DNA of 62,806 bases, filler included. It is 7 parts of 7 records of this genome, joined end to end, with 100 filler letters (N's around TTAATTAATTAA, not from the genome) between each part and the next. Parts side by side here need not be neighbours in the genome. Positions count along the whole stretch, not along the records: positions 1 to 14,924 come from SRR9188677_222; 6 more parts are not named here. One strand, given 5' to 3'. The notes beneath the pieces are model-generated. The model was not told the origin of the DNA. It saw only the letters and a program-made list of their open reading frames with translations, and made no database searches. Made by a program: the position numbers and the translations under genes. Shown in pieces: positions 1-22,980 of the stretch (the first letter of the stretch is position 1; every line of letters begins with the position of its first letter).

Positions 1-99
1 TCCGCAAATTTCTTAACGCCTTTTTTCAAATGCCGGATAAAGACCTTGAGAAATGAACTTTGAGCTTGTTCTACCTAATTCGATATTGGGTGTTTGTTG

Positions 100-168
100 T
101 TCTATGTTCTATATTCTATGTTGTTTTACTTCCTTCGACATTCGACATTCCCTTTTCGATATTCGATA
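100..168. repeat. Degenerate 7-bp tandem repeats (TTCTATR x3; TTCGAYA x4 plus one degenerate unit)
   Basis: ttctatg-ttctata-ttctatg at 100-120; ttcgaca-ttcgaca-ttccctt-ttcgata-ttcgata at 134-168. Confidence 0.75.
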
Positions 169-230
169 TTTCCCGCCCATGCAGGGTTCGATCTTCGATC
201 TCTTTATTCCTGTGACATTGTCGGAGATTG

Positions 231-2426
231 TCAGAGCTTAATGCTAAGGGTAGCCGTCAGATTCCTGCCCTCTGATGGCCATATACCCGGACCCGGGTAA
301 AACATAGGCCGTTTGGTAAAGTAAGAAAGGTTAGTAAGATTATTGATTGTCATCTTCAGACCCAGTGATCCGGAAAAACGGAATCCTGTAGTCAGATCCC
401 ATATAGCATAAGCAGGCACCAACCCTACGGCCCCTGTGGCTGCGGGTGGTTCTACTGTATTCAGCGCATCGGCATAGGTAGCAGCAGTATAACTGTACAG
501 CAGCGCTATGCTGAATTTGCGATAATAGAGGGTTGCTCCATTTCTGCTGGTGAGTGCCGGTGCACTTTCCACTTTGTTACCTGCTATATTAACATTGGCA
601 TTCCCCTGTTTTACCATAGCTTCTGTATAACGGGCATCTAACCAGGAAGTGGAAGTAAAGACCGTCAGGTTTGTTCTTTTACCAAGTAACCAGTTAGCCT
701 GAATAAAAATTTCGGCACCCTTACTGGTAGAATTACCAATATTGGTACGGTAGAGGTACAGTGTTCCTGTATTATCGGTTTGTGCAAGTGTACCAAACCG
801 ATTGTTATCGCGAAGCAGAAAAGCCGTAATATCCCATTTCAAAAAACGCCAGTTGCCCTTTACACCCATCTCTGCATTGTAACCGGATGCATCGCGGATA
901 TTGGGATCTACCTTATCATACAAAGATGCCGGTACCAGGTCTTTAAAAATCATGGGGCGGTAGGCCTGCGACCATCCACCATACAACTGCAGATTTTCAG
1001 AAACTTTGTACGCTGCAGTAACTGCATACAGGGGAAATTGATGGTGGATAGATACAGGTATCTTATGATCGGGGTAGTAGTTAATGATACCGCTGAGATC
1101 TGTATGCCCGCTTTCTATGCGCGTACCCATGGTAACAGCCAGTTCGCTTGTAAGCTGCCATTTGTTTTCTGCAAAGAATGCAATGTTTTTTGTTTTAAAA
1201 TGCAGGTCTCTGCCCCATCCGGGTGTAACCAATGTCAGGTCAAAATCGTTACCGGTACTGCCAACCCCCAATTGTGTTCTGTGCAGGTCGTTATTCATGT
1301 ATTGTACCCCTGTTACCAATATACTGGTCTGTTTTCCTGTTCGGTACTGATGCAATAAGCGCAGTTCTGTGGTATAACTGTTAAAGCGGTCTATATCAAC
1401 CTGCCGGTTATTGTATTGTAAAGTAGAGAGGTTAAGTGTATCCTGTATATTGGTGGGTTTATCAAACATGACACTATTGCGTTTTCCCAAAACTGCAGAC
1501 AAGCTCCATTTCAGTTGTGTTAGCCGGCTCAGTTGCCAGTCTGCCGTAAGAGAAGGTACATGAATATTCGGATTAAAATAATTCCTGCTTCTGGTGGCCA
1601 GACGGGGATCTGTTTGAAATTGCCTGTCTGTTAGTGCCCCCGACATACGGTATACATATCCCGATCTTGACCATTCTGCACGAAGGCTAAAACGGTGCGA
1701 GGCCTGATAAGTTAGTACCATGGATTCTGCACCTGCATCGGTATGTTCATTTGCACGGTAGCCATTTCTTGTTTTCCTGTTTACATACCCGTAATAAGAA
1801 AATTTTCCTGTGCGTCCACCTACAGCTAGATATTGGTTTAACAAGCCATAGGATCCCACTGTAGTAATAGCTTCTACGCCGATGGATCTGGAGGAGTCGG
1901 CAGTTTTACCGATATAGTTAAGCATTCCACCAAACTGCGCCCCATATTGCAGAGAGCCTGTTCCTCTTACCAATTCAATTCTTTCAATGCTTTCCAGTGG
2001 CATATTAAAATGACTGGCCGGGTATCCATACATATCTGAATTAGTAATGATCCCATCTTTCCTGATATTGAATTCCCATCCGCGATGTGGATCCAGCCCA
2101 CGCAACGCTATATTTATCTGGTTGCCCGCTCCATCCATATCATATACAAATACGCCCGGAATTTTAGCAAATACCTGGCGGCCTACTTTATTGGTCATAT
2201 CTGCATCTGTGTGCAACAGGTTCAGTTTTTCTGTTTTTTTGCCCGCAAAGAGATAGGTTCCCTGTACATCCGGCAAATAAGATTTCTGTGCGGAAAAAAC
2301 ATAGGCATTGACCACCACACTATCCAGCAAGGAAAACCGGATAGAATCTTTTGCATTTTGTGCCTGTGCAAAAAGTGCAGGACAAAGAATCCATTGCAGG
2401 CCGATAAACCAGATTAACTTTTTCAT
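231..2426 (-). CDS. TonB-dependent outer-membrane receptor (FecA-like, no SusD partner)
   Basis: Signal peptide; plug motifs ALRGLDP and IERIELVRGTGSLQYG; C-terminal NNLTNLSY box; 731 aa beta-rich. Confidence 0.92.
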   Translation of the reverse strand: MKKLIWFIGLQWILCPALFAQAQNAKDSIRFSLLDSVVVNAYVFSAQKSYLPDVQGTYLFAGKKTEKLNLLHTDADMTNKVGRQVFAKIPGVFVYDMDGAGNQINIALRGLDPHRGWEFNIRKDGIITNSDMYGYPASHFNMPLESIERIELVRGTGSLQYGAQFGGMLNYIGKTADSSRSIGVEAITTVGSYGLLNQYLAVGGRTGKFSYYGYVNRKTRNGYRANEHTDAGAESMVLTYQASHRFSLRAEWSRSGYVYRMSGALTDRQFQTDPRLATRSRNYFNPNIHVPSLTADWQLSRLTQLKWSLSAVLGKRNSVMFDKPTNIQDTLNLSTLQYNNRQVDIDRFNSYTTELRLLHQYRTGKQTSILVTGVQYMNNDLHRTQLGVGSTGNDFDLTLVTPGWGRDLHFKTKNIAFFAENKWQLTSELAVTMGTRIESGHTDLSGIINYYPDHKIPVSIHHQFPLYAVTAAYKVSENLQLYGGWSQAYRPMIFKDLVPASLYDKVDPNIRDASGYNAEMGVKGNWRFLKWDITAFLLRDNNRFGTLAQTDNTGTLYLYRTNIGNSTSKGAEIFIQANWLLGKRTNLTVFTSTSWLDARYTEAMVKQGNANVNIAGNKVESAPALTSRNGATLYYRKFSIALLYSYTAATYADALNTVEPPAATGAVGLVPAYAIWDLTTGFRFSGSLGLKMTINNLTNLSYFTKRPMFYPGPGIWPSEGRNLTATLSIKL

Positions 2427-2521
2427 ACTTCTTGCATTAACAAATAAGTTCCCCGGTAAACACCAGGGAACGTTTCAATAAACTACCATTGATTGATCCT
2501 TTAACGGGATACCTATTATTT

Positions 2522-4075
2522 TTATTCTGCACCATCTGCTTTGGCTTTGGCAATCGCATAGGCACCTACTTTTTGTCCGGTCAGTAATCCTACTTCACAA
2601 TCGCTTCTGTAATGGATACCCCCGTACATTCTTGATACAGAAGCTTCTCTCGCCATCTCATTATACAGGTTCAGTTTTTCAGGCAAGAGATGACCAAGTA
2701 TGGTTGCTGCGGCCCCGCTAAACGTGGAATGCCCTGAAATATATGCCGGAAAATTAGGGATACCTGTCAACGTTTTGATGGCCGGGTTCAGTTGGGTAGG
2801 CCTGGCATTGTAATAATAATACTTAGTGTCCCAGCATACAATGGCTGCATCCATCATTGCCATATTCAGCAGAGCCAGATTCCTGGCCCACCTTACTTCA
2901 CTCAGATTTTTTGCGATAAAGTCTTCCGCAGCAATAGCATTCCAATGTCCGGGTGGTGTATAAGTACCTACCCCATCCGCCCAAACATGCACAATACGGA
3001 TACGATCGCGTGTGGGATTATCAATCAAGTCTTTGATCTCTGCTGTTTCTTTTTTCATCTGATCACCCGTTGTGGCGGGTGGGGGTCCGGGACGTAATGC
3101 CACCGTGGTATTTACATCAAACAGGAAGGGCGTAACTTTTCCAAACAAGGGTAACATGGGCGGTCTTTTTGGCGCATCCAGACTGATCCAGGGTACTTCG
3201 CCTCGGGCAGTAGTAGTCGTTTCCAATGCTGCCCAATCGGTTGGTGTTCCAATAGCGGCACCAGCTTTATCGGTTCTGGCACGGGCCGTAAATTTTTGCG
3301 CCACCAATCTGCCCAATGCCTCGCCCGCTTCAATATCGCTACGGGTAGCGGTACCGGAAGCAATAGCAGCCAGTTCATGCTCTTCCAGTTTCTGCTGAAT
3401 AGCGGCGATCTCACCCGGAAATAACAGCTTCATCATCTCAGCAGTTACTCCGGCCAACACAGCCGCTTCTGAGGGATAGGAAGGCAGGTCAGTCTGAGAC
3501 CATTTTGCGGTTACAGCCGCATCTGTTTTATAAGGTGCAGCGCGGTTATATAGTTTCTTATAATACCAGGCAGCCACCAATGCATCATATTGTGCTGCAC
3601 TGATATAGGCATAGGCCCTTGCCGCATACGGCGGATTGGCAAAAGGAAACAAAGGATACGCAAAAGGATTGGCCGCACTGGGTGCGGGATAGGTACCATC
3701 GGCATTCTGGTAAGGCGGCAGGTTGTATTTGGCCACCAGCTCGCGCATGATCTCGTTCCAGCGGAGTACCCCACCGGCACCCCAATAAGCCATTTTCTTT
3801 TCCTGATCTGCAGAAAGATTTTTCTGTAATGCTTTGATCTCGTTCAACTCAGCTACATAAGCCGGCGTAGTTATAGCTACTGGTACCGCCACTGCAAATT
3901 CAGTAGGTGCCGTTAACAAAATGGGCTTCCAGTTTCCGGCATTGATATCTGTTTGTACCGGTGTCAGAACTGCCATATCATCTGTGCGGCCTGTAGCCAT
4001 TTTTTTACAGGAGACCTGCAGGCTAACTAAAAGTATTGCGCCGAAAAGTATTGTTAATAAGGTTATCTTTTTCAT
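2522..4075 (-). CDS. Tandem-domain PAP2/vanadium-haloperoxidase-family lipoprotein
   Basis: Lipobox LQVSC; C-terminal domain has K-x6-RP (KYYYYNARP), ISGH and SRMYGGIHY; N-terminal copy degenerate; start reassigned to MKKITLL at 4075. Confidence 0.85.
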   Translation of the reverse strand: MKKITLLTILFGAILLVSLQVSCKKMATGRTDDMAVLTPVQTDINAGNWKPILLTAPTEFAVAVPVAITTPAYVAELNEIKALQKNLSADQEKKMAYWGAGGVLRWNEIMRELVAKYNLPPYQNADGTYPAPSAANPFAYPLFPFANPPYAARAYAYISAAQYDALVAAWYYKKLYNRAAPYKTDAAVTAKWSQTDLPSYPSEAAVLAGVTAEMMKLLFPGEIAAIQQKLEEHELAAIASGTATRSDIEAGEALGRLVAQKFTARARTDKAGAAIGTPTDWAALETTTTARGEVPWISLDAPKRPPMLPLFGKVTPFLFDVNTTVALRPGPPPATTGDQMKKETAEIKDLIDNPTRDRIRIVHVWADGVGTYTPPGHWNAIAAEDFIAKNLSEVRWARNLALLNMAMMDAAIVCWDTKYYYYNARPTQLNPAIKTLTGIPNFPAYISGHSTFSGAAATILGHLLPEKLNLYNEMAREASVSRMYGGIHYRSDCEVGLLTGQKVGAYAIAKAKADGAE

Positions 4076-4076
4076 T

Positions 4077-5042
4077 TCAATTTTGTTTTGAGGGTGAAGT
4101 GGTTTCTTTGGCTTTCTTCGAAAAATCAAGAATGTAAAAAATGCCCCCGTTAATACTACTGGTCTGCCCCATATTACGGCCGGCCAGTGTAATACTTCCT
4201 CCCCCGATCAATGAAAGACCCTCCACTTTTTTCACTTCGTATTTGATATTAACCCCGGCCGTGCTGGCATTCATTTTATTGCTGGGAAAAGGCATGTTGT
4301 TGCGCGTAATATCAAAACCACCCAGTGTGTTAGACTGGTTAAGAATCAGCTCTGCGATGAGCTTACTGCTGCGCCAGCCGGTTCTTACCTGGTAATTACT
4401 CATATCCGGCATAGATACTTTATTGGTATTATGCAGCTCAGTTGTATAATAAGCAGTCCTGTCGATGGTAATATTATTCCTCACTATATAAGTACCCGAT
4501 ACCGTAGCAAAAAAGTTACCGATCTGGTAATCCAGCATGGCGCGAAATGATAGATTCGTGCTATGCAAACCGATAGACAAAGGCAAAAAATCAGGTGTAT
4601 AATTAGTGGTAGGGAAAGAGATGCCTCCCAGACCATATACCGAGATCGTTCCTTTTCCCCATTGGGTTTCAACAGGCATCCATTTGGCCCATACAGAAAG
4701 GTCCTGAAGACCTTGTAACCCATGCAGGGTTCCGGCAGATGCTTTGGTTTGTACATAAGGAAGTCCGAATAACAGGTTCAGCTTATCCGATACCCCATAG
4801 TTTCCCATTACCGCATACATATTGGCAGATACGGTTCCAAGGTTATCATTGTTTCTTTTCAGAGTTCCTTCCCAGTAATTTGTCCATTGACTGTGGCTGT
4901 ACATTAATCCGGTACAGAAATTATTTTTCGACATCATGATGGCATCCATATCTGTTTGCGCAGACAGCTGCGTGCAAAACAATACGATACCTATAAAGTG
5001 CAGACTGATATATTGGTACCAGCCCTTTATTGATCTTTTCAT
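4077..5042 (-). CDS. Putative outer-membrane beta-barrel protein (transporter/porin-like)
   Basis: Signal peptide ending QLSA; alternating amphipathic strands; terminal strand GIFYILDF; start probably MKRSIK at 5042. Confidence 0.6.
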   Translation of the reverse strand: MKRSIKGWYQYISLHFIGIVLFCTQLSAQTDMDAIMMSKNNFCTGLMYSHSQWTNYWEGTLKRNNDNLGTVSANMYAVMGNYGVSDKLNLLFGLPYVQTKASAGTLHGLQGLQDLSVWAKWMPVETQWGKGTISVYGLGGISFPTTNYTPDFLPLSIGLHSTNLSFRAMLDYQIGNFFATVSGTYIVRNNITIDRTAYYTTELHNTNKVSMPDMSNYQVRTGWRSSKLIAELILNQSNTLGGFDITRNNMPFPSNKMNASTAGVNIKYEVKKVEGLSLIGGGSITLAGRNMGQTSSINGGIFYILDFSKKAKETTSPSKQN

Positions 5043-5119
5043 AAGAGCAGATTTAGGGTATGACACAACAGGGCACGGCTATACCATACACCCATTGTAC
5101 AAATTGTTTTAGTGGTTAC

Positions 5120-6199
5120 TTAGAACCTTAGTGAGAGACCCAGGTTAAGCGCATAATCTGCAAAAGCAGCATCGCCCTTGGTATACTTTCCGGTATTGGC
5201 TGAGGTGATCTTATCAGCCATGCTCTGTGTTCGGTTACGGGTAATGGCAATCGGTACAAAAGCGTATACATTGAATTTCTTGAAAGCATAGGTAACACCG
5301 GGTTCGGCCGAAAGAATATAACCGGGTCTTCTGAAACCCAGACTGCCACCAATCAGATCATGTACCGGAATACACTCATTGCGCAAACCCAATGAAAAAG
5401 TGTACCGGTTCACCATGATGTTGGCACCGCCCCGCAGCATCATCTGATCAGGAACACTCATTACATCGCTGCCATTGGCAATAGCTGTGGCCGATGGTGT
5501 TCCGCCTCGGGCAGTAGAAACACCGTTCTGTTCTCTCGGGTTCATGAGATAATAGAAATTACCATATAAACTGATAGCATGGGTTAGGCTGTAATAGGCA
5601 TTGATCTCTGTAGTAATACCTGTTCCGCCATCACCCAGTTGTATCGACTGGTCTACCGGACCAATCTGTGTTACCCCTGCCACCGCTGTATAAAAACGAT
5701 CGGTGTAACGGTATTCGCCGGTGGGTAATTTCAAACCCAATCCTATCTGTACATTACCTTTTGTGTGTTTCATCGGGTTCAGCAGCCAGTAAGAAGCGGA
5801 TACGCGGATATCTCCCAAACCGAAAGAAGCGGTAGTATGTCTTTCCTTACCGCCATGCTCATACAGCGAAGAACGGGTATTGGAAATAATGGGTACATCG
5901 GCCGAAACAGACCAGCGGTGATTCAGGATCCGGGTAACGGCTACATCCATGGTATAGGCATGGTTGATTACCTGGGTACCGGCATCCACCCTATGTTTCT
6001 GTTCTACATCACCCACAAAATGTTTATAGGAGTTGAAATAGCGGTTATTGATATTGAGTAACCATTTTTGTTGGGAAGAATCGTTGCCGTGATCCATGGT
6101 ACCTAAACCACCCACACTTCTGATGGCAACGCAACCCTGGGCATTGGCCCGCGACGAAAGTGCAAGCAATAATATAATTACAATGAAATTTGATTTCAT
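5120..6199 (-). CDS. Putative outer-membrane beta-barrel with N-terminal Cys (QGCVAIR)
   Basis: Signal peptide ANA-Q; GLGD and GLKLPTG motifs typical of small OM barrels; C-terminal Phe (LSLRF). Confidence 0.65.
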   Translation of the reverse strand: MKSNFIVIILLLALSSRANAQGCVAIRSVGGLGTMDHGNDSSQQKWLLNINNRYFNSYKHFVGDVEQKHRVDAGTQVINHAYTMDVAVTRILNHRWSVSADVPIISNTRSSLYEHGGKERHTTASFGLGDIRVSASYWLLNPMKHTKGNVQIGLGLKLPTGEYRYTDRFYTAVAGVTQIGPVDQSIQLGDGGTGITTEINAYYSLTHAISLYGNFYYLMNPREQNGVSTARGGTPSATAIANGSDVMSVPDQMMLRGGANIMVNRYTFSLGLRNECIPVHDLIGGSLGFRRPGYILSAEPGVTYAFKKFNVYAFVPIAITRNRTQSMADKITSANTGKYTKGDAAFADYALNLGLSLRF

Positions 6200-6240
6200 A
6201 CAGTTTTTTTAAGCGATGAGTAATGGTTGTGAAAAAGAAC

Positions 6241-7569
6241 CTATTTCTTTTTCATCTTCAAACGGCTGGCCACCAGCTGGCCAACTTTGGCTCCTATATC
6301 GGTACTGATGATACAGGAATTGTGAAAGTGCAAACCACCATAAAAGCGCGCCCAGTTATTCTCTAGGGCAGCATCACGGAACGATTTGAAGGACCGGCTT
6401 TTGATACCGAATTCCAGTTCCGTAGAGTCTGTATAGGAGAAATTGTCGCCAAAAACACTGGTCAGTGCTTCAGCGGCAGCAGAAGAAATGGTTGAGTGCC
6501 CGCAGGTATATTCCGGAAACGCGGGGGTTTGCAGGTAAGGGCGCCAATTGGGATCAATGAATTTATTGATCACCGTTTCGGGCCTTACCGTATTATACTT
6601 GTATTTCACATACCAGCATTGAATGAATGAATCAAACAAAGCAATACTGGTTTTAGCGAATGCGTACACAGTTTCGGGGTAGCTGTATTTAGCCTGCTTG
6701 GCGGCTATTCCTATCACACTCATCCAGTGGCCTGATGGTGAGAATTTTTTACTACCGTACATCACATGACCGGTAACATTCATTTTAAATGGATTATCAT
6801 CCCAGAATTCAGCAATATGTTTTTGTTCGTCAGTCAGACTGTCAACGGCATTTTTGATCGCCATCACTTCCTTATAATATTTGCTGTTTTTATCAGTGAT
6901 ATTATAATCCGGTGGTGGTGGTGGTGCAAAAACAGACGCACTGTCAATCACCATCGGACGGATCTCCATCCAATGTGGTTCAGCTGCGGATGCGTATAAA
7001 GGTGGCGTAGGTACCCAGCGGCCCGGTTCGTCTTTTACGGTATATTTTTCAGCGCCGCGTGTTTGCAGGTAATTATCGCCCTTACTCCAGCGGATGATAG
7101 AAGCCGACACACTATCTGCCAATAGCTGTGATGCTTCTTCTACATCGCCCGGCAGGCCCTTATCGCGGGCCAGCTGTAAGATGCTGTCTTTATAGATCTG
7201 CAAACTTCCTTCGGGAAAAGTAACCGATTCGCCCACTTTCATGTAGGCCAGCAAAGCAGCCAATTCTATATCTGCCTTGGGATCCGCGGAAGGAAATGAT
7301 ACCTGGGTTAACCCTTTTACCTGACCCGCCAATGACTGGTACTCATCGGGATGGGCAAATGCCATTACTTCATAGGCAGCAACGGCTGCATATACATAAT
7401 TACGTGCTGCCACCATGGGTGGGAAATTGTTTCCCATTACTACGGTGTTCAACTCATGAACTGTCTGACTGAATAATTCCGGATTGTGCAGGTAGGTTTT
7501 GTATTCATCGTTCTGACGGCATGCATACAGACCTAACACAACACAAAGACCCATGATGAGTCTTTTCAT
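6241..7569 (-). CDS. Vanadium-dependent haloperoxidase-family lipoprotein
   Basis: Lipobox LYAC; KYKYNTVRP, EYTCGH, ARFYGGLHF motifs; FWDDNP; size typical of bacterial V-HPO-like proteins. Confidence 0.88.
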   Translation of the reverse strand: MKRLIMGLCVVLGLYACRQNDEYKTYLHNPELFSQTVHELNTVVMGNNFPPMVAARNYVYAAVAAYEVMAFAHPDEYQSLAGQVKGLTQVSFPSADPKADIELAALLAYMKVGESVTFPEGSLQIYKDSILQLARDKGLPGDVEEASQLLADSVSASIIRWSKGDNYLQTRGAEKYTVKDEPGRWVPTPPLYASAAEPHWMEIRPMVIDSASVFAPPPPPDYNITDKNSKYYKEVMAIKNAVDSLTDEQKHIAEFWDDNPFKMNVTGHVMYGSKKFSPSGHWMSVIGIAAKQAKYSYPETVYAFAKTSIALFDSFIQCWYVKYKYNTVRPETVINKFIDPNWRPYLQTPAFPEYTCGHSTISSAAAEALTSVFGDNFSYTDSTELEFGIKSRSFKSFRDAALENNWARFYGGLHFHNSCIISTDIGAKVGQLVASRLKMKKK

Positions 7570-7619
7570 ATGCTAAAAATTAAGGAAAATAAAATGAGGT
7601 GATGCTTAATGAACCAACG

Positions 7620-8180
7620 CTAGACTTGTGGTGGCTTATCCAGACGGCTGAGATACACAGACTTCAGATCGGCAAAAACCGTCGAGTTCCAGGTTCCAGA
7701 CAGATCAGCGTTCCTAAACTGCCAAGAAAAGAATTCGTGATCATTCGTGAAATCCTGTACTGAGAATTTCGCCGCGTGATGCTGGTGTGAAGGTGCCTTT
7801 TTGGATGTATTATTGGTTACAAAATCGTTGGCTAAACTGGCGAACTGGTCGCGCGCATTTTTGATCCCTGTTTTTACCATATTGGGGATACAGAGCAATT
7901 CCAGTGAATCCTGGTAAAAACGGCGTTTTACATAGGTATACGTAACGCCTTTGATCTCTACACTACCTTCTACTCTTTCAAATTTTTCGGAACTGCTACC
8001 ATAGGGCAAACTGGCGGGCACTTTAATGCGTAAGAGATCAGCTTCGTTGTACTGGTCAAGATCCAGTGCAGCCTGTAATTGCAGGTCGGCACGGTCTTCG
8101 AAATAATTGGTCAACAGCCGGTAACCTCCCCAGTTAAAGAGAAGGATTCCCAATAGCAGTATGGACACAATCTTTTTCAA
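7620..8180 (-). CDS. Hypothetical protein with N-terminal membrane anchor and His-rich patch
   Basis: Likely TTG start (LKKIVSILLLGILLFNWGGY) 19 nt after the GH65 stop; SHQHH patch. Confidence 0.7.
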   Translation of the reverse strand: MKKIVSILLLGILLFNWGGYRLLTNYFEDRADLQLQAALDLDQYNEADLLRIKVPASLPYGSSSEKFERVEGSVEIKGVTYTYVKRRFYQDSLELLCIPNMVKTGIKNARDQFASLANDFVTNNTSKKAPSHQHHAAKFSVQDFTNDHEFFSWQFRNADLSGTWNSTVFADLKSVYLSRLDKPPQV

Positions 8181-8199
8181 GCCGTGTGAAAATAACACA

Positions 8200-10233
8200 T
8201 TATTTTTTAACCGAAAATATTTTCTTTTCCACGCCAACCCCAGTGATAGTAAGGCTCTTCCACTGTTTGGGCAGGGTAGATTTTACCTGGGTAATGCCCT
8301 GCGGCGTGATCTCCAATCCGCCAAAACCCATTAACACGCTCTGTATCAATCCTCCCGCGCCGGTGGCAAAATAGGGGTTGGTACCACCCTTACCCTCGGC
8401 TATTACCCGGAAAGGCGGGTTCAGGTTGGGTATATATCCATCCTTGAAAAAATGCAGGGCTTTTTCTCCATCGCCCAAACGGGCATATAATAAAGAAAAA
8501 ATGGCCTGTGTCATAGAAGGGGTTCCCTCATTGGGCACCCGTGTTTCATAATATTCGAGGTCTTTGCGGATCTGTTTGGGATCGCTTACTTCTTTAAGCG
8601 GGTAAGACAACAGGTTTACATCTGCCTGTTTAATACCCTCGCCATTGTAAGTAGCATGTTCTCTGGTAACCCCGTTCTCCATTTTCAGGATGGGGATATT
8701 ATTGGCCACCTGCATCCAGTCGGGGTCTGCCGTAATGCCCAACAGTTTTGCCGCAGCCGTTGCATTTTGTAAAACGGCTTTCGCAGCTGCATTGGTCCAA
8801 GCGTTGTTATCTACATTCTCGGCCCACTCATCGGCAGCCACTACATTTTTGATCTCATATTTACCCGGTCCATTCCGCTCTACCCGGCTGCTCCAGAAAT
8901 CGGCTGTTTCTTTCAGAATGGGCCAGCCTTTTTCTTTCAGCCATTCTTTGTCCTGTGTAACACAATAATAGTTCCAGGCGGCAATACCCACGCAGGCGGT
9001 GATATGGTGTTCGAAGGGACCACTCAATGCCCATACCGGTGTTTCTTCTACACCCGTTGCCGCACTCTCCCAGGGAAACATGGCGCCTTTGTATCCGTGA
9101 TTAAATGCATTTCTTTTGGCTGCCGCCAGACGGTTAAATCGGTATTCTACCAGGCTTTTCGCCATTTCGGGATGCAGTACCAGGATGGAGGGATACATCC
9201 ATAATTCGGTATCCCAGAACACATGGCCATTATACCCAAGGCCACTTAGGCCCATGGGCGATGGACTCATATCCGTTCCTTCGCGAACAAATGAATAGAG
9301 ATGGTAGAGCATACTGTGAATATCCTGCTGCGACTGGTCATCGCCCTCTACGGTAATATCGCTCTCCCATAATTTGTCCCAGGCTTTGTTGTGGAAGTTG
9401 ATCAGTCTTTCCCTGCCTTCCAGTTTGGCAAAAATGGTCATACGTTCCGCTTCGTTCAAAGGATCATCGTGGTGTGCGGATGTGATAGAAGATCCCGCAA
9501 TAGAATACCGGTACGATTCACCTGCTTTGATCTTGCGGGTAAATTTCATCAGGTGCATATTGTTGTCCCACATTTCATGGATCACACGGGGTTCCTGTCC
9601 GTACGGTTCACTGAAGAGAAAGGTATTAGACGCGCTCATCAGTAATTTACCGGTAGGACTTTTGGCGGAAGAAGTCAGCAAGCTGATCACCACATGTGGC
9701 CGGTCTATCTCGTTATAATAATTCTGTACATCTTTTAATGCATCCGGTGCTTCCATTACACTGCCGCTATTGATGGTTATATCTTTTTTGGCGGTGATGT
9801 TTACATCCATCAATACGGTGAAAGGAAGTTGCCGTAAAGAGTAGTAGGTATAGGAAACGGTTGCTTTATCACCATAGTCGAAAGAAGTGGTAAAACTGGC
9901 GTGTTTCATATCCAGTTCCTGTTTCATGTGCGAAACATCGGCGCTGCCAATCCTTCTGCCATCAATATCGAGCTGCATATTCAGCAGGTTAAAACTGCGG
10001 AGAAAATTGCTGACTCTTCCACGACCGTAGAGATCGTATGCACCGGCCAATACCACATCTTTGATCTTAAAAGGCTCGGGCGAAGAAACGATACCGATCA
10101 TTCCGTTAGCCACGGTGATGCCGTAGTAAGCCGCAGGATTGATCTGATCTGCGCTGATTTTCCAGGCATCTATTTTCTGTGCAGCAGCAGACAGGCTGAT
10201 GACGGTAACTAAGAGGAATAGCAGCTTTTTCAT
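8200..10233 (-). CDS. Glycoside hydrolase family 65 (secreted; alpha-1,2-glucosidase/PGGHG-like hydrolase type)
   Basis: YNGHVFWDTE, AADE (catalytic acid region) and KQADV motifs; signal peptide. Confidence 0.9.
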   Translation of the reverse strand: MKKLLFLLVTVISLSAAAQKIDAWKISADQINPAAYYGITVANGMIGIVSSPEPFKIKDVVLAGAYDLYGRGRVSNFLRSFNLLNMQLDIDGRRIGSADVSHMKQELDMKHASFTTSFDYGDKATVSYTYYSLRQLPFTVLMDVNITAKKDITINSGSVMEAPDALKDVQNYYNEIDRPHVVISLLTSSAKSPTGKLLMSASNTFLFSEPYGQEPRVIHEMWDNNMHLMKFTRKIKAGESYRYSIAGSSITSAHHDDPLNEAERMTIFAKLEGRERLINFHNKAWDKLWESDITVEGDDQSQQDIHSMLYHLYSFVREGTDMSPSPMGLSGLGYNGHVFWDTELWMYPSILVLHPEMAKSLVEYRFNRLAAAKRNAFNHGYKGAMFPWESAATGVEETPVWALSGPFEHHITACVGIAAWNYYCVTQDKEWLKEKGWPILKETADFWSSRVERNGPGKYEIKNVVAADEWAENVDNNAWTNAAAKAVLQNATAAAKLLGITADPDWMQVANNIPILKMENGVTREHATYNGEGIKQADVNLLSYPLKEVSDPKQIRKDLEYYETRVPNEGTPSMTQAIFSLLYARLGDGEKALHFFKDGYIPNLNPPFRVIAEGKGGTNPYFATGAGGLIQSVLMGFGGLEITPQGITQVKSTLPKQWKSLTITGVGVEKKIFSVKK

Positions 10234-10320
10234 ATCGAAGGATTTGTGGTAAAAATAAGGTTTATCGAAAAGTGTAACCCGGGTTCTGTATGAGTGGTTA
10301 ATGAAGTATGCTGAAATCTT

Positions 10321-13300
10321 TTATTGCTTTTTGCGAAACAGGTATAACTTGTCGTTGTTCATGCCTACCAGCACATAACTTCCCCCATTGGCCGCATTCA
10401 CCACAGCCGTTGCCCTGGCTTCGCCATTGATGAAGAGACCGCTTTGTTTGGGTTTTACGTACGTAAATTGATGTTGTCCATTATTCAGCAACGTGGTTCC
10501 GTAACTGGCATCAAAACGGCCTGTCTGTGGTTTGAGACCATAGAAATTACCTGCCAGAAAAAGATCTTTTTTACCATCACCATTCAGATCAGTAACGGTA
10601 ATACCAAACACAGGCGATAACTGCGCCATCACCGGTAATGCCTGCAGGATAAATGCTCCTGTGCCGGTATTCAGGAAAACCGCAGACTGTGATTGTTCTG
10701 CCGTTAGTACCGTAGCATGTGTTAGCTGCTCTTCACTCAGGATCTCTTCTATCGTTTTGCCCGCATAGGCTTCGTAACGGAGAAATTTCTTTTTCAATAC
10801 CGGCAACTGCGATTCCAGTTCATCTTTCAGGTAATAGGGATAGGCTTTGCCATCAGGCTTGTAGTAAACAGGAATACATTCTGTTTGCCCATTCTTGTCA
10901 AAATCATCTACGTATAATTTAGCGGGATGTTGTGGATCGGCTTTGATATTGCTGTTCATGCCCATATTACCCGCCGCCAGATCCTGCGTACCATTGCCAT
11001 CGATATCTGCCACTGTGATACAGTTCCACCAGCCGGAAGAATTAGGAATGGTTGTTTTCTTTTTGAGTTGTTTATTCTCGTAGGCATAGATGGTGATTGG
11101 CATCCACTCGCCAGCCAGTACCAATTCTTTTTTCCCCTTACCACTCACATCTGCCCAGGCTGCATCGGTTACCATACCTGCTTTCTGCAGTTCCGGTGCC
11201 ATGGTGGCCGTAACATCCGTAAAAATTCCTTCACCTTCATTATGCAGCAACACACTCGCCGGCGATACACCATAACTACCCGGTATACTTCTCGCACCTA
11301 TGAACAGATCGGGTTTTCCATCTGCATCAAAATCGCCCGCGGTTACACAAGATGCATTCACCGAAACAGCCGGCCATCCTTTGGCAGAAGAACTGAATTC
11401 GCCCTTGCCGTTATTGAGATACAAACGGGTGTAGAGATACGGAGATCCCACCTTGGCTTCGTTTCCGCCGGATGCGGCTACCAGGTCCTGGTCGCCATCG
11501 CCATCTGCATCAAAAAAAACGGCTGCCGTTGTTTCATAATAACTATCAGCCGTGAATATTTTCTGTGCACGGTTTTCAAACTTGCCGTCTTTGCGCTGGA
11601 TAAACAGTTTATCTGCATCGCCCGCGGCTGCGCCTACAAAAAAATCTTCCAGTCCATCGCCGTTCACATCTGCCACCGCTATACCTGGTCCTTCTGTTGA
11701 CAATAATTTAGGAATCAGTCTCTCCACATCAAAATCCACATAATCGTTCTCCTTATGCAAAGTGTTGCCCAACAGGTTGGTAGCTGAAATATTTTCGTAA
11801 AGTGGAGGTTGTATTTTGGGTGATGGTATTGGCTGCAGGGCTTTTGGCTGATCGAGTACAAGCAGGGTATCTATTCCCGGATTTTTGATTACTTGTATTT
11901 TCCGATTGGGCCAGCTAACCAGCAGGCTATCGATTTTAGTAAACTTACCCAGGCCAAATAACAATACCGGTTCTACACTGCTTTGAAAACCACGGGTAGG
12001 TTGCTGCTCCAGCACCTGTTCCTGCCCACCAGCAAAAACCGTTACACGGGTACCATAGCCCATTGTATTGGGTGCCGTACCGTTTAATTTGATTTTGAGG
12101 TAATGATTTTTTTGTTGATCTCTACTGTGGTTGCGGTAAACAGTTGCTTCATCATTGTGGTTATTGATCACGAGGTCCAGATCGCCATCTCCATCCAGAT
12201 CGGCATAAGCGGCGCCGCTGCTGAAAGTTGGTTTCGTAAAACCCAACTGAGACGATGCATCTTTGAACTGCAGGTTCTGCTGGTTCAAAAAAGCGAAATT
12301 GGGAATGGGAACCGAAGGCATCCTGTTCAGCAGATCCAGAAAATCAAATCCACCCTGGCGTATGCGGTTCAGGTTTTCCTGGCTGTTAAAATAAGCGAGA
12401 AAATCCTGGTTGGTCAGGTCTCTGCGGATGCCATTACAAACAAAAATATCTTTCCATCCATCATTGTCGAAATCAAAACTGAGGGTTCCCCAGCTCCATC
12501 CGGTTGCATCCACACCAGCCAATTGTGCAATTTCGCTGAAAGTGCCATCCTGGTTATTCAGTTGCAGTGTGTTGGCAGTGAACTGGTGATGCAGGTCCAG
12601 TTTATTCCTTGCATTCTGCACATCATAGCCATCAAATTTGATGGTGGTCTTTAAGCGGAAATCATTTTCAGGCAACATTTCTGCGGTAAACAGATCCAGG
12701 TAACCATCGTTATTGATATCAGCCATATCCGTACCCATGGCACCATTACTCATATGCCCCATGGCTTTGGTACTCTCTTCTTTAAAAGAGCCGTTACGCT
12801 GGTTGATATAGAGATAATCATGTTCAAAAAAATCATTGGCTACATACAGGTCTTCCCAGCCATCATTGTTCAGATCGCCTACGGTAACACCCAGTCCGAA
12901 TGCAATCTCTGAACCATAGATCCCGGCCTGCTCACTCACTTCGGTAAATTTACCGCCCTCATTTCTGTACAGATGATCTCCATCTACCGGGTCACGGATA
13001 TAACGGATATCACTTTTATATCCAAAGTTGTCGATAGATTTGGGGCTGTTATTCAGCACAAAACAATCCAGATCGCCATCATGATCATAATCAAAAAAGA
13101 TGGCCTGGGTAGAAGCGCCTTTATCATCCAGTCCGTAAGCCTTTGCCTCTTCTGTAAAGGTTCCGTTTTTTTGGTTGATGTATAATTCATTGGCGCGGTC
13201 ATCTCCCGGCAGGATCCCGGCATTACAAACATAGATATCCAGCCAGCCATCTGCATTGATATCTACCATGGATACACCGGTATGCCATTTGTGCTGACTG

Positions 13301-13653
13301 GTAATGTTAGCCTTGGCCGTAATATCTTCGAAAGAAAAATTGCCTTTATTCAGGTATAAAGTATTGGCGCCCTGGTTGGAGGTGAAAAAAACATCGGGTC
13401 TTCCGTCGTTATTGATATCACCCATAGCCACCCCGCCCCCATTGTAAAAATTATGGTAGTTCAGGATATTCATTTCTTTGGTATCGGTTACCTTATTGGC
13501 AAACGAGATCCCGGTTTGTGAGGCGGGCAGTAATTCAAAAAGGCTGTTTTTGGCCGATGCCTGCTCTGACCGGGAGCAGGAAGCCAGCATACAAAGGCAA
13601 AACCCGGCACAGATAAATACAACAAGGGAACGATGGAACATAGGTTTCTGCAT
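10321..13653 (-). CDS. FG-GAP/VCBS-repeat, ASPIC/UnbV (CRTAC1-like) lipoprotein
   Basis: Many DxNxDGxxD repeats; ASPIC-like RGFQSS..LLFGLG segment; lipobox LASC; start 13653 or 13641. Confidence 0.9.
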   Translation of the reverse strand: MQKPMFHRSLVVFICAGFCLCMLASCSRSEQASAKNSLFELLPASQTGISFANKVTDTKEMNILNYHNFYNGGGVAMGDINNDGRPDVFFTSNQGANTLYLNKGNFSFEDITAKANITSQHKWHTGVSMVDINADGWLDIYVCNAGILPGDDRANELYINQKNGTFTEEAKAYGLDDKGASTQAIFFDYDHDGDLDCFVLNNSPKSIDNFGYKSDIRYIRDPVDGDHLYRNEGGKFTEVSEQAGIYGSEIAFGLGVTVGDLNNDGWEDLYVANDFFEHDYLYINQRNGSFKEESTKAMGHMSNGAMGTDMADINNDGYLDLFTAEMLPENDFRLKTTIKFDGYDVQNARNKLDLHHQFTANTLQLNNQDGTFSEIAQLAGVDATGWSWGTLSFDFDNDGWKDIFVCNGIRRDLTNQDFLAYFNSQENLNRIRQGGFDFLDLLNRMPSVPIPNFAFLNQQNLQFKDASSQLGFTKPTFSSGAAYADLDGDGDLDLVINNHNDEATVYRNHSRDQQKNHYLKIKLNGTAPNTMGYGTRVTVFAGGQEQVLEQQPTRGFQSSVEPVLLFGLGKFTKIDSLLVSWPNRKIQVIKNPGIDTLLVLDQPKALQPIPSPKIQPPLYENISATNLLGNTLHKENDYVDFDVERLIPKLLSTEGPGIAVADVNGDGLEDFFVGAAAGDADKLFIQRKDGKFENRAQKIFTADSYYETTAAVFFDADGDGDQDLVAASGGNEAKVGSPYLYTRLYLNNGKGEFSSSAKGWPAVSVNASCVTAGDFDADGKPDLFIGARSIPGSYGVSPASVLLHNEGEGIFTDVTATMAPELQKAGMVTDAAWADVSGKGKKELVLAGEWMPITIYAYENKQLKKKTTIPNSSGWWNCITVADIDGNGTQDLAAGNMGMNSNIKADPQHPAKLYVDDFDKNGQTECIPVYYKPDGKAYPYYLKDELESQLPVLKKKFLRYEAYAGKTIEEILSEEQLTHATVLTAEQSQSAVFLNTGTGAFILQALPVMAQLSPVFGITVTDLNGDGKKDLFLAGNFYGLKPQTGRFDASYGTTLLNNGQHQFTYVKPKQSGLFINGEARATAVVNAANGGSYVLVGMNNDKLYLFRKKQ

Positions 13654-13832
13654 CAATGACAATAGACTAAAATAACACAGCAAATTACCCCTTTTATGAT
13701 CGCAGTCAAAAAGAGAATATGACCGGCGGTATTGTCGATTTTAGCAAATCGTTAATAGGAGGAAACCTTATCAATCGGCGGTTTCTGGCGCAGATTCCCT
13801 TATTTTGCAGTGCTTTAAATTAGCTGCTGTAT

Positions 13833-14774
13833 ATGAAGAAACTGTTGCTTATTCTATTAGTCGTTCTGGCCCTTTTTACTTCATCCCTTTACCTGTTGAT
13901 TCCCGGCAAAATCAGTATCGAGCGTTCCGTAGCTGTTAAAACAACAGATGTGGGTACCGAGCGGTTTCTGATAGACGAGACCAAATGGCCGCTCTGGTGG
14001 AATAGCGGTACAAACGGGGACCAGCAGACCGGTCCTGTATTTACCCACAATGGTTATTCTTTTCAGCAAACAGGCAAGTTTTACAAATCAGTGGATATTG
14101 CTATCAGCAAAGGTGAACGAAGCCTGCTTTCCAAATTGCTGATCATTTCCCTGGCAGTAGATTCTACCAGCCTGCAATGGAAAGCCGAGTTAATCACCAG
14201 CCGCAATCCCATTACCCGTATAGCAGATTATCTGGAAGCCAAACAGATCAAAAGAGATATGGATGAGATATTGGGTCGTCTTACAAATTTTCTGTCTGAT
14301 ACCTATAATATCTATGGCATTCAAATTGAGCGAAACCGTTTACGGGATACCTTGTATGTGAGCTCCAAACAGATGCTGCCCAAGAACCCTACGGTAAAAG
14401 AAATCTATCAACTGATTGATAAGATCAAAGGTTATATCAAACAGAATGGGATTGAACCCAGTGGAAGTCCGATCTACAATGCCACCCGCATGGACGAAAA
14501 CCGCTACCAGTTAATGGCGGCAGTGCCCGTAAACAAACATCTCCCCGAAACCGCCGGTTTCTCCATGAAATATATGGTGAAAGGTAGTTTTATGATTACC
14601 GAAGTGGCGGGCGGAGACAGTACTATCAACAAGGCCTCGAAAAATATGCAGCAATACTTCCAGGATTACCGGAAAACATCCATGGCCATGAACTTTACTA
14701 TGCTCGTTACCGACCGCATCCTGCAACCCGATAGCAGCAAGTGGGTTACGAAGTTGTGTATGCCGGTGTACTAG
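13833..14774 (+). CDS. Membrane-anchored protein, SRPBCC-like plus GyrI-like effector-binding domain
   Basis: N-terminal TM; IERSV..WPLWW start; C-terminal DSSKWVTKLCMPV typical of GyrI-like domains. Confidence 0.6.
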   Translation: MKKLLLILLVVLALFTSSLYLLIPGKISIERSVAVKTTDVGTERFLIDETKWPLWWNSGTNGDQQTGPVFTHNGYSFQQTGKFYKSVDIAISKGERSLLSKLLIISLAVDSTSLQWKAELITSRNPITRIADYLEAKQIKRDMDEILGRLTNFLSDTYNIYGIQIERNRLRDTLYVSSKQMLPKNPTVKEIYQLIDKIKGYIKQNGIEPSGSPIYNATRMDENRYQLMAAVPVNKHLPETAGFSMKYMVKGSFMITEVAGGDSTINKASKNMQQYFQDYRKTSMAMNFTMLVTDRILQPDSSKWVTKLCMPVY

Positions 14775-15227: not shown

Positions 15228-16496
15228 ATGTCATCACTGTCGAAATTCCGTCTTGCCGTGAGCACATCGGCAGCTGTGCTGCTGCTGGCGTCTGCCGCCT
15301 ATGCGCAGGAGGTGGTCAACTGGGTGCATATCGAGCAGAACCCGGACACCGTCCGCGTGTTCGAGGAGATCGCCGCCGGCTACGAGGCGCTGCACCCGGA
15401 CGTCGATATCAGGATGCAGTATCTCGAGAACGAGGCCTACAAGGCGCGCCTGCCGACGATGCTGCAGTCGAACGACGCACCCGACATCTTCTACAGCTGG
15501 GGCGGCGGTGTGCTGGCCGAGCAGGTGAAAGGCGGCGTGCTGCGCGACATCAGTGCTTCGGTCGACGACGCGTGGAAGACCTCGATCGCGCCGTCCGCAT
15601 TCGGTGCCTTCACCGTTGACGGCAAGGTCTACGGTGTGCCGGTGCGCACCTCGCTGGTCGGCTTCTTCTACAACAAGAAACTGTTTGCCGATGCGGGTAT
15701 CGACGAGACGACGCTGGGCACCTGGTCGGGCCTGCTCGCCGCGGTCGACAAGCTCGAGGCCGCCGGCATCACACCGATGGCGCTGGGTGGCCAGGAGGGC
15801 TGGCCGCAGCACTTCTATTTCTCCTATCTCGCCATCCGCACTGCCGGCCACGAAAAGCTGAACGCCGCGTTGGCCGGCGAGGGCGAGGGGTTCCGCGATC
15901 CCGCCTTCGTCCAGGCCTTCCAGCTGCTGGCCGATCTGTCCGCCAAGAACCCCTGGCAGGAAGGCTGGCAGGCCGCCACCACCGGCGATTCCTATGCCAG
16001 GTTCGGCAATGGCGAAGCCGCCATGCTGCTGCAGGGCGACTGGGCCAAGGGGCTGACCGCGGCCGAGAGTGCTTCGGGCCAGGGGCTTGGCGACGATCTG
16101 GGCTGGTTCGCCTTCCCGCAGGTTGAAGCCGGCATCGCCGACAGCAAGGAAACCTTCGGCGGCGTCAACGGCTGGATCTTCTTCAAGGATGCGTCGGACG
16201 CCGCGGTCAATTTCGTGCGCTACTACTCGAGCCGGGAGAACCTGATCAAACTGGCCAATGAGGGCCACCAGATCGCTCCGATGCCCGGCATGGCTGCCGA
16301 GTTGCAGGATCCCTGGCAGAAGATGGTGGCTCAAACCATCGAAGGCTCGGCGTTCCACCAGAACTTCTACAACGTGATGTTTTCCGAGGAAGTGAACCGC
16401 GAGCTGCTCGATATCGTCACCAGCGTGGTGACCGGCGATCGGACGGCCGAACAGGCCGCCGACGCCCTGCAGACCGCCTGGGAATTCAGCCACTAA
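15228..16496 (+). CDS. Carbohydrate ABC transporter substrate-binding protein (CUT1)
   Basis: Signal peptide AYA; APDIFYSWGG, DGKVYGVP, FYNKKLF motifs; GGAGG RBS. Confidence 0.92.
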   Translation: MSSLSKFRLAVSTSAAVLLLASAAYAQEVVNWVHIEQNPDTVRVFEEIAAGYEALHPDVDIRMQYLENEAYKARLPTMLQSNDAPDIFYSWGGGVLAEQVKGGVLRDISASVDDAWKTSIAPSAFGAFTVDGKVYGVPVRTSLVGFFYNKKLFADAGIDETTLGTWSGLLAAVDKLEAAGITPMALGGQEGWPQHFYFSYLAIRTAGHEKLNAALAGEGEGFRDPAFVQAFQLLADLSAKNPWQEGWQAATTGDSYARFGNGEAAMLLQGDWAKGLTAAESASGQGLGDDLGWFAFPQVEAGIADSKETFGGVNGWIFFKDASDAAVNFVRYYSSRENLIKLANEGHQIAPMPGMAAELQDPWQKMVAQTIEGSAFHQNFYNVMFSEEVNRELLDIVTSVVTGDRTAEQAADALQTAWEFSH

Positions 16497-16562
16497 CGAC
16501 AAGGGGATGCCGCATCGCCTCTCGGGGCGATGGGACGTTCGCCGCCGAACACGGAGCACGGC

Positions 16563-17486
16563 ATGGCCACGGCAATCGCGCAGAAGATCGGCGCCCTCTA
16601 CGCGCGGGCAAACAAGCCGCTACGCCTCAGTCCAGGTCTCACCACCGCGGTGATCTTCCTCTTGCCGGCGCTGCTGCTGTTCACCACCCTGGTGATCCTG
16701 CCGATGGCAGAAGCCGCGAGCTTCAGCTTCTATGAATGGGGCGGCTACGGCGATGTCGGGCAGTTCGTCGGGCTCAAGAACTACCAGCGGATGTTCTCGC
16801 ATCCGGTGTTCTCCGGTGCGCTGTTCAACAATTTCCTGATCATCGTCGTTTCGATCTGCGTCTCGCTGCCGCTGGCCTTCCTCCTGGCGGTGCTGGTGGC
16901 CGACAAGTTCAAGGGCGTGTCGTTCTTCCGCGCCATCTTCTTCATTCCCTACATCCTTGCCGATGTCGCCGCAGGCCTGATCTGGCGCTTTCTCTATGAC
17001 GGCCAATACGGCATCGTGCAGTTCGTCGCTGGGCTGTTCGGCCTTACCGCGCCGTACCTGCTCGCCGATCGCGACCTCGCCATGTACGCGGTGCTGCTGG
17101 TGGTGGTGTGGAAGTACTTCGGCCTCCACATGATCATCTATATCGCCGGCCTGCAGTCGATCCCGCGCGAGGTGCTGGAGGCCGCCCGCATCGACGGCGC
17201 CTCCTGGTGGGATACACTCATCCGCGTGATCGTGCCGATGATGGGCCCGACCATCCGGCTGACGGTGTTCTTCTCGATCATCGGTTCTTTGCAGTTCTTC
17301 GACCTGATCATGCCGCTGACCGGCGGCGGTCCGCAGAACTCGACCCAGACGCTGGTGAGCTACCTCTACAATTTCGGCATCGTCCGGCTGAACATCGGCT
17401 TCGGCAGCGCGGTGGGGGTGTTCCTGTTCCTCGTCTGCGTGCTGTTCGCCTTCTCCTACCGCCGCCTGCTCATGGCCAAGGACTGA
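16563..17486 (+). CDS. Carbohydrate ABC transporter permease (MalF/UgpA-like)
   Basis: EAARIDGA loop; multiple TM helices; GGAG RBS before ATG 16563. Confidence 0.92.
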   Translation: MATAIAQKIGALYARANKPLRLSPGLTTAVIFLLPALLLFTTLVILPMAEAASFSFYEWGGYGDVGQFVGLKNYQRMFSHPVFSGALFNNFLIIVVSICVSLPLAFLLAVLVADKFKGVSFFRAIFFIPYILADVAAGLIWRFLYDGQYGIVQFVAGLFGLTAPYLLADRDLAMYAVLLVVVWKYFGLHMIIYIAGLQSIPREVLEAARIDGASWWDTLIRVIVPMMGPTIRLTVFFSIIGSLQFFDLIMPLTGGGPQNSTQTLVSYLYNFGIVRLNIGFGSAVGVFLFLVCVLFAFSYRRLLMAKD

Positions 17487-17490
17487 CCTC

Positions 17491-20214: not shown

Positions 20215-20251
20215 ATATGAAATTTGAATTATTTGATGTGTTAAGTTCCTC

Positions 20252-22974: not shown

Positions 22975-22980
22975 ATGTGT

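Follow-up and report, generated by a model that had tools for sequence, protein, structure and literature searches.

The window analyzed here is a 62,806-nucleotide stretch of DNA that carries, on its minus strand, a locus in which two lipoproteins of the vanadium haloperoxidase (V-HPO) fold, VHPO1 and VHPO2, are encoded beside two small, predicted outer-membrane barrels, bar1 and bar2. The conserved core of this locus is composed of a small membrane-anchored protein, VHPO1, bar1, and bar2 with VHPO2. The gene order is kept in dozens of genomes, and the arrangement is thus beyond chance. Judged from gene order and spacing, bar2 and VHPO2 appear to be an obligate, translationally coupled pair, and VHPO1 and bar1 a looser pair. 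The function that we tentatively prefer, short of calling it probable, is that of an enzyme-channel module, where VHPO1 would oxidize halides using vanadate and hydrogen peroxide (H2O2) and the barrels would pass the reactants or products. The source is a freshwater, Chitinophagaceae-like bacterium, and the nearest relatives of bar1 are found in the Chitinophagaceae, e.g., Sediminibacterium.

Open reading frame (ORF) calls place eight genes between 13683 and 231 on the minus strand, and a ninth, divergent gene at 13833-14774. The initial annotation had described six co-oriented envelope genes between 231 and 8180, and all six are confirmed as minus-strand ORFs at those positions. The small protein probably starts with the TTG at 8180; its longest ORF spans 7620-8237. 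Likewise, the longest ORF of VHPO2 spans 2522-4129, and its likely start is the ATG at 4075, which gives a protein beginning MKKITLL...VSC. By inspection, five of the six proteins have a signal peptide or a lipobox; the exception is the small protein, with a membrane helix at its N-terminus. The core genes, in the order in which they are read, are as follows.

7620-8180, minus strand: small membrane-anchored protein of ~186 amino acids (aa), the first gene of the module (ORF; no Pfam or NCBIfam match)
6241-7569, minus strand: VHPO1 lipoprotein (Pfam VCPO_2nd, 32.6 bits, above the cutoff of 27)
5120-6199, minus strand: bar1, putative COG4313/FapF-type outer-membrane barrel (predicted model and Foldseek; no Pfam family)
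4077-5066, minus strand: bar2, putative COG4313-type outer-membrane barrel (predicted model and Foldseek; no Pfam family)
2522-4075, minus strand: VHPO2 lipoprotein (Pfam PAP2, E 7.1e-14)

Conservation of the arrangement was scored in three samples. Sample a is made up of the 80 loci with the closest bar1 relatives (the best 80 of 571 confirmed) in a one-genome-per-species collection. Sample b contains the bar1 relatives in 401 genomes sampled evenly across the phylum, and sample c the VHPO1-like matches in those same 401 genomes; the pooled set is 120 loci. In sample a, VHPO1 or VHPO2 is co-oriented within 3.5-4.5 kb of bar1 in 70 of 80 loci (VHPO1 in 53, VHPO2 in 42, both in 25), and seven of the ten loci that have neither are cut by contig ends. 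In sample b, bar1 relatives occur in 24 of the 401 genomes, at 25 places, and 12 of the 24 fetched loci carry a VHPO gene. VHPO1-like matches at E<=1e-30 are found in 77 of the 401 genomes.

The linkage is tightest between bar2 and VHPO2. Across the 120 loci, bar2 lies directly upstream of VHPO2 in 53/53 places, and neither gene was used to choose the loci. The VHPO2 ATG lies 1 nucleotide (nt) past the bar2 stop codon (TGAAATG). In the same set, bar1 directly follows VHPO1 in 56/77 places, a count that runs too high since bar1 served as the anchor for most loci, and the small protein is directly upstream of VHPO1 in 53/76. Mucilaginibacter loci have the order small protein, bar2, VHPO2, a DoxX-like membrane protein, and bar1, and they do so without VHPO1. 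The expectation that the barrels are kept beside V-HPO genes is therefore borne out, both by the 70 of 80 bar1 loci and by the invariable bar2-VHPO2 pair.

VHPO1 aligns over its full length to PDB chain 4CIT_A (E 5.5e-110, residues 1-439 on 9-449). The entries 4CIT and 4USZ are the Zobellia galactanivorans iodoperoxidase Zg-VIPO1, and to our knowledge the Zobellia enzymes are the only characterized ones among the V-HPO-like enzymes of Bacteroidota. Zg-VIPO1 shares with VHPO1 a lipoprotein-type signal, the Lys, Arg, Gly-His, Arg, and His residues of the oxyanion site, and a Cys-Trp pair that aligns with Cys318 and Trp319 of VHPO1. The Zg-VIPO1 residues Ser358, His360, Arg410, His416, and Cys320 fit the 4CIT alignment with an offset of 8. 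The two proteins differ at the Ser of SGH (Cys in VHPO1), at the second position past the His (Arg in Zg-VIPO1, His in VHPO1), and at the fifth (Ile in Zg-VIPO1, Cys in VHPO1). The Pfam PAP2 score of VHPO1 is 27.0, against a cutoff of 27.2.

Residue conservation was counted in 57 VHPO1-type sequences that come from related loci. All 57 have K322, R329, P330, and H358, and R408 and H414 are found in 56/57, the remaining sequence having an X. The lipobox Cys17 is also invariant. In the window, the oxyanion set K322, R329, G357, H358, R408, and H414 is present, and Cys356 replaces the Ser of SGH. Of the 57 sequences, 37 have Cys at position 356, 19 have Ser, and one has Ala. The Cys co-varies with H416 and C419 in a clade with at least 59% identity to the window VHPO1; sequences without it read S...R..D, or S...R.A as in 4CIT. 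In an independent search of the phylum, six of eight VHPO1 orthologs are of the Cys type and none of those six adjoins bar1. The Cys type is thus a property of the clade and independent of bar1. The alignment leaves room for the clade-specific Cys356, His416, and Cys419 to be a modification of the oxyanion site, perhaps a redox switch. As a natural variant, the Cys-substituted site could inform the mechanism or engineering of V-HPO enzymes.

VHPO2 is the more distant of the two lipoproteins. It matches 4CIT_A at E 9.8e-19 over residues 326-528, i.e., its C-terminal ~200 residues. All seven vanadate-contacting residues are present (Lys, Arg, Ser-Gly-His, Arg, His), and K436, R443, P444, S465, G466, H467, S499, R500, H506, and D510 are invariant in 45/45 sequences. 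VHPO2 and its orthologs, like VHPO1 and its orthologs, possess lipoprotein signal peptides. The initial annotation had assigned both lipoproteins to the V-HPO/PAP2 fold, and their K-x6-RP, (S/C)GH, and R-x5-H residues and the alignments to 4CIT agree with that assignment. Its description of VHPO2 as a tandem PAP2/V-HPO protein does not hold, as there is a single catalytic motif set and the N-terminal bundle matches VCPO_2nd at only 18.9 bits, below the cutoff. Such a bundle is usual for the fold and does not make a tandem of two active PAP2 units.

The barrels were modeled with AlphaFold2 on ortholog alignments, and the models were compared with the PDB using Foldseek. The model of bar1 is a barrel with a pLDDT of 74.0 and a pTM of 0.74; that of bar2 is a barrel with 81.6 and 0.76. 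For bar1, the matches are the FapF pore 5O67 (E 4.8e-12, TM-score TMt 0.70) and the COG4313 channel Pput2725 (4RL8; E 7.6e-08, TMt 0.73). For bar2, 4RL8 comes first (E 8e-10, TMt 0.81-0.82, rmsd 3.9-4.0 Å) and FapF next, at a TMt of 0.59-0.66. The models thus favor the claim that both proteins are outer-membrane barrels. The Cys noted earlier in bar1 is indeed conserved; C23 is invariant (34/34), and a conserved QGCVAIRS segment is present at the N-terminus.

Sequence comparison places the barrels less closely. Neither bar1 nor bar2 of the window has a Pfam match at E<=0.01, and PF13557 is detected in 12 of the 120 bar1 homologs listed and in 3/25 aligned bar2 homologs (best E 2e-08). FapF is the best sequence match of the bar1 profile among solved structures (E 0.0084), and the NCBIfam FapF model scores 23.2 bits on bar1 against a cutoff of 700. 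A search of solved structures with the bar2 sequence gave nothing meaningful. Profile comparison of bar1 with bar2 found no detectable homology (probability 6.7%).

COG4313 channels are described as 12-stranded barrels occluded by their N-terminus, and the source, in the portion available, favors uptake of hydrophobic or amphipathic molecules (PMC4493636). The same portion gives TcpY (trichlorophenol) and SphA (sphingosine) as the sole members with a proposed function, and a conserved loop cluster that includes Pro-Thr-Gly-x-Tyr (PMC4493636). Matched by eye, P159-T160-G161-E162-Y163 of bar1, of which T160, G161, and Y163 are invariant, appears to correspond to this part of the cluster, and bar2 has P152-x-x-N-Y156 at that place. 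Like the COG4313/PF13557 channel Pput2725 (4RL8), bar1 and bar2 are modeled as 12-stranded barrels in which an N-terminal segment precedes the first strand, and as for TcpY, their genes adjoin enzyme genes. Unlike in known COG4313 systems, the partner here is a V-HPO-fold lipoprotein, a pairing not found in the literature searched. The amyloid-secreting FapF pore of Pseudomonas (5O65, 5O67) is the best match of bar1, yet no Fap genes are present here. A complex prediction of bar1 (21-359) with VHPO1 (18-442), made with alignments unused, scored 0.08 against a mark of 0.34 and is evidence neither way.

The small protein belongs to a family with 2150 representatives at E<=0.001, with a length of ~185 aa throughout the 150 listed. 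An alignment of 46 homologs has a conserved helix, a YVKR...C-IPN stretch, and a C-terminal PP. The His patch (HQHH) by which this protein had first been characterized is not conserved among them. CzcI appeared as a lead in the ESM Atlas and was rejected at 0.84, below the useful range; the other clusters are unnamed and from Bacteroidota.

Homology favors vanadate-dependent oxidation of iodide or another halide for VHPO1. In the scheme that we tentatively prefer, VHPO1 would bind vanadate at its K/R/H/R/H site and, like its Zobellia relative, use H2O2 at the outer membrane to oxidize iodide or another halide. The dedicated barrels would carry small reactants or products across that membrane, candidate cargo being halide, hypoiodous acid (HOI) or I2, and oxidized or halogenated amphipathic organic molecules. 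The proposal of amphipathic cargo is in line with the COG4313 substrates trichlorophenol and sphingosine. VHPO2 may carry out the same chemistry or act as a phosphatase. For an iodine-accumulating strain of Flavobacteriaceae that encodes at least five Zg-VIPO homologs, uptake has been proposed to follow extracellular oxidation by a haloperoxidase with H2O2 (PMC5064120), and this model fits the scheme proposed here for VHPO1 and its barrel.

A more specific version of the scheme, which we consider unlikely as it stands, places the enzyme on the channel. The Cys-His-Cys vanadate-site oxidase would then make HOI, iodine, or another oxidized halogen at the mouth of its own barrel. If true, this would be a means of dedicated iodine capture, or of oxidative attack on organic matter coupled to uptake, in freshwater and soil Bacteroidota. 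We know of no outer-membrane halogen-handling machine of this kind.

Several observations weigh against halide oxidation coupled to the barrels. The other 12 of the 24 bar1 loci of sample b, all at <=44% identity, lie in unrelated contexts. Among the 15 places of sample c with more than 50% identity to VHPO1, only seven adjoin bar1; five have the small protein, VHPO1, bar2, and VHPO2 without bar1, one has the small protein only, and two have neither barrel. The loci come mostly from related families, and the counts across them are therefore not independent events. The module encodes no source of H2O2. In 37/57 orthologs, the window VHPO1 among them, Cys takes the place of the vanadate-contacting Ser, and we know of no characterized V-HPO among those met in the comparison that has Cys at that place. 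A thiol beside a hypohalite-forming center is also odd. A full phosphatase S-R...H-x3-D occurs in ~14/57 VHPO1 orthologs. The flanks in Chitinophagaceae are sugar genes (GH65, LacI, MFS, trehalase), and in one of the 120 loci (L005) GDPD and metallophosphoesterase genes lie behind a TonB-dependent receptor (TBDT). Finally, the lumen of the barrels is polar and slightly basic with conserved Arg and Lys, a weak hint from a crude assignment of strand faces by DSSP ranges without coordinates.

The Ser-to-Cys change, the phosphatase motif of VHPO2, the sugar and phosphoesterase neighbors, and the polar lumen together make a phosphate-ester module a serious rival, one that we regard as possible but doubtful. 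In such a module, the lipoproteins would be PAP2 phosphatases of the outer membrane with sugar phosphates or amphipathic lipid phosphates as substrates, and the barrels would take up phosphate or the dephosphorylated moiety. PAP2 enzymes include phosphatases of lipid and sphingoid-base phosphates and glucose-6-phosphatase, and PAP2 acid phosphatases have the motifs KX6RP, PSGH, and SRX5HX3D. VHPO2 has KYYYYNARP, SGH, and SRMYGGIHYRSD, so that its KX6RP/SGH/SRX5HX3D set is complete in 45/45, and it matches acid phosphatase 7F17 at E 6.9e-09. Like the class A acid phosphatases (PhoN, PhoC, 7F17), it has every motif residue including His-x3-Asp. Unlike them, it is 2.5 times longer, has an extra N-terminal helical region, is lipid-anchored, and is nearer to Zg-VIPO1. 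The rival is strongest above all for VHPO2.

For VHPO1 the phosphatase case is poorer. The window protein reads CGH, has A-R instead of S-R, and has Ser instead of the phosphatase Asp, at a position where 4CIT has Ala; its PAP2 score is just under the cutoff, and the closest characterized relative of both enzymes is an iodoperoxidase. Genomic context also cuts both ways. GH65 is upstream in 26/54 module loci with full flanks, trehalase is 11/63 of the direct co-oriented neighbors scanned (63 of 73 neighbors) and lies within the fetched flanks of 27/120 loci, but these sugar-catabolic flanks occur in a single family only and are missing from Mucilaginibacter loci. SphA, which the consulted part of one study links to sphingosine, is a COG4313 member (PMC4493636) and would suit lipid-phosphate substrates. 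The text of a phosphate-starvation study in Flavobacterium, as far as it was available, mentions no PAP2 or vanadium-type proteins (PMC8115612).

A second alternative is that the barrels are not substrate channels and instead translocate or anchor the adjacent lipoprotein at the cell surface, in the manner of Slam or FapF. FapF, a polypeptide secretion pore, is the best match of bar1 in both sequence and fold, and the one-to-one linkage of bar2 with VHPO2 (53/53), with translational coupling, would suit a barrel that serves its neighbor. The N-termini past the lipidated Cys partly resemble the Bacteroidota lipoprotein export signal, a likeness judged by eye. Against this, bar2 resembles the COG4313 channel more than it does FapF (TMt 0.82 vs 0.59-0.66), bar1 homologs also occur without a nearby lipoprotein gene, and in a subset of loci bar1 follows the DoxX-like protein and not VHPO1. 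A 12-stranded pore would moreover require that a 45-55 kDa helical enzyme be exported unfolded. This alternative is improbable.

The last gene of the locus encodes a TBDT and is separated from VHPO2 by a spacer of 95 nt.

2448-2471, minus strand: terminator-like hairpin in the spacer between VHPO2 and the TBDT (10-bp stem, then TTATTTGTT)
231-2426, minus strand: TonB-dependent receptor (Pfam Plug and TonB_dep_Rec_b-barrel)

The hairpin stem has six GC pairs and is followed by a T-rich run, and the folding z of the spacer is -2.88. Strong hairpins of differing sequence are present in four of five related VHPO2-TBDT spacers (z -3.2 to -4.6); the spacer in locus L066, of 37 nt, has no strong hairpin. 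Where at least 7 kb of downstream DNA is available, the module is followed by a TBDT ortholog in 12/49 loci of sample a and 3/11 of sample b, or 15/60. One related genome lacks a TBDT in its own module and has TBDT paralogs, with 35-51% identity, at other places. A Crp-type regulator and AcrB are found in the neighborhood of such a paralog and are uninformative.

No NCBIfam model reaches its cutoff on the TBDT, the best being TIGR01783 at 119.6 bits against 223.5, Pfam shows only the plug and barrel, and the plug alone matches a solved receptor. The label "FecA-like" is therefore not upheld, and neither a siderophore-receptor score above the curated cutoff nor the N-terminal signaling domain of FecA is found. 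The absence of SusD is confirmed; the locus has no SusD and no CarboxypepD_reg domain, so the receptor is not half of a SusC/SusD pair. Assignments by NCBIfam and solved structures tie it to none of vanadate, halide, or iron. The initial annotation had expected both the barrels and the TBDT to be conserved beside V-HPO genes and had made the TBDT part of a vanadate-importing module. The barrels are so conserved and the TBDT is not, and its presence in 15/60 loci together with the hairpin leaves the vanadate-importing receptor unsupported and supports the pairing of enzyme and channel. The TBDT is a facultative neighbor outside the conserved core. A six-gene system, in which TBDT and barrels import vanadate or halide to load surface haloperoxidases, is thus very improbable: the genes are co-oriented and adjacent here and in 15 related loci, but the missing orthologs, the hairpin, the paralogs elsewhere, and the lack of a substrate-indicating family all speak against it.

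All parts of the enzyme-channel module belong to known folds. Their combination, in which a V-HPO-fold lipoprotein goes with a dedicated COG4313-type barrel and a small membrane-anchored protein, did not turn up in the literature searched. The fixed coupling to small outer-membrane channels provides a testable handle on the roles of V-HPO-like enzymes; candidate roles are the cycling of iodine or halogens in soil and fresh water, the oxidative processing of organic matter, and the scavenging of phosphate esters. It also widens the known range of partners of the poorly understood COG4313 family.

A comparable cassette of Bacteroidota combines SusC/SusD, FG-GAP/ASPIC, and a VIPO-like gene. The enzyme family is the same, and an FG-GAP/ASPIC gene is upstream in the window as well; unlike in that cassette, small barrels and a small anchored protein replace SusC/SusD here. 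VHPO1 homologs with 41-45% identity sit with FG-GAP propellers and SusC/SusD, whereas the VHPO1 clade sits with COG4313-type barrels. Six of eight fetched VHPO1 homologs at 41-45% identity (L114, L116-L120) adjoin FG-GAP/ASPIC genes, and in L116, L117, L118, and L120 SusC/SusD-like genes (~1010 and ~520 aa) also adjoin the homolog, in a CAZyme-poor cassette. The FG-GAP/ASPIC propeller is a usual companion of VIPO-like genes in Bacteroidota. One Sediminibacterium genome (locus L008) has nine VHPO1 matches at E<=1e-5, which points to a large expansion of V-HPO-like paralogs in the family.

Three further genes surround the module in the window.

10321-13683, minus strand: FG-GAP/ASPIC (CRTAC1-like) propeller protein (Pfam FG-GAP_3, E 3e-93; UnbV_ASPIC, E 1.1e-19)
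8200-10233, minus strand: GH65 kojibiose hydrolase, preceded by a signal peptide (NCBIfam NF053734, 1216.1 bits; cutoff, 800)
13833-14774, plus strand: divergent gene of 313 aa with an N-terminal membrane helix (no Pfam family)

GH65 is a lineage-specific upstream neighbor of the module and is possibly co-transcribed with it. The paper on kojibiose hydrolase has no passage on gene context. Downstream of the modules in Chitinophagaceae are found LacI, MFS, trehalase, and a GH13 enzyme. In at least seven related loci (L001, L005, L007, L027, L050, L066, and L086), look-alikes of the divergent gene, of ~300-330 aa, are likewise encoded on the other strand and lie upstream of the module or of GH65.

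Other accessory genes are scattered through the 120 loci. A DoxX-like membrane protein of ~270 aa is present in 19, a RidA-like protein in 10, DUF3179 in five, and a DUF417-like protein in four. The assignment of the DoxX-like polytopic protein (e.g., L009:9065-9880) is weak, at 27.9 bits in L076 and 22.1 in L009; it precedes bar1 in the inspected loci, mostly where VHPO1 is absent. In Escherichia coli, RclC is a DUF417 protein and rclC mutants are sensitive to HOSCN, according to the part of the report consulted (PMC12096828). Given this link to hypohalous-type oxidants, an occasional DUF417 gene near the module is thematically consistent with halogen chemistry, as weak evidence.

Expression was approached through contigs from RNA libraries of two sediment studies, which derive from a relative ~90-95% identical to the window. 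Contigs of 6524 nt (word depth 731) and 7839 nt (word depth 536) bridge VHPO2, the small protein, and GH65 and cover 2861-10298 of the window; contigs of this kind are not proof of a single transcript or of an expression level. Contigs of the FG-GAP gene have a depth of ~0.1-10. The bridging contigs hint at joint expression of GH65 and the module, and their depth suggests that the VHPO2-GH65 region is strongly expressed in situ in the relative. The TBDT region 468-2335 has no RNA-library cover in four runs, which is not evidence of silence, as the relative may lack the gene. Scans for promoters gave no excess: 21 sigma-70-like sites against a shuffle mean of 27, and 34 matches to the Bacteroidota-type motif TAnnTTTG against 42 expected, with none in 1-12000.

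Beyond the divergent gene, an ABC transporter of the sugar type, with two permeases and a solute-binding protein, occupies 15228-18315 on the plus strand. It is followed at 19438-28776, also on the plus strand, by ferulate/vanillate-type genes for an enoyl-CoA hydratase, an AMP-binding CoA ligase, an SDR, a VanA-type Rieske oxygenase, a ferredoxin reductase, Amidohydro_2, and an MFS protein. This aromatic cluster was considered as a functional link and rejected. No VanA homolog was found in five related module-carrying genomes, and the cluster is thus probably unrelated to the module.

At the other end of the locus, just past the TBDT stop codon, positions 98-236 contain 7-nt tandem arrays (TGTTCTA x3.6, TTCGATA x5.3, TTCGATC x2.1). 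Contigs of other runs often break or diverge at 132-170, and the repeat region may be a variable or repeat-bounded junction.

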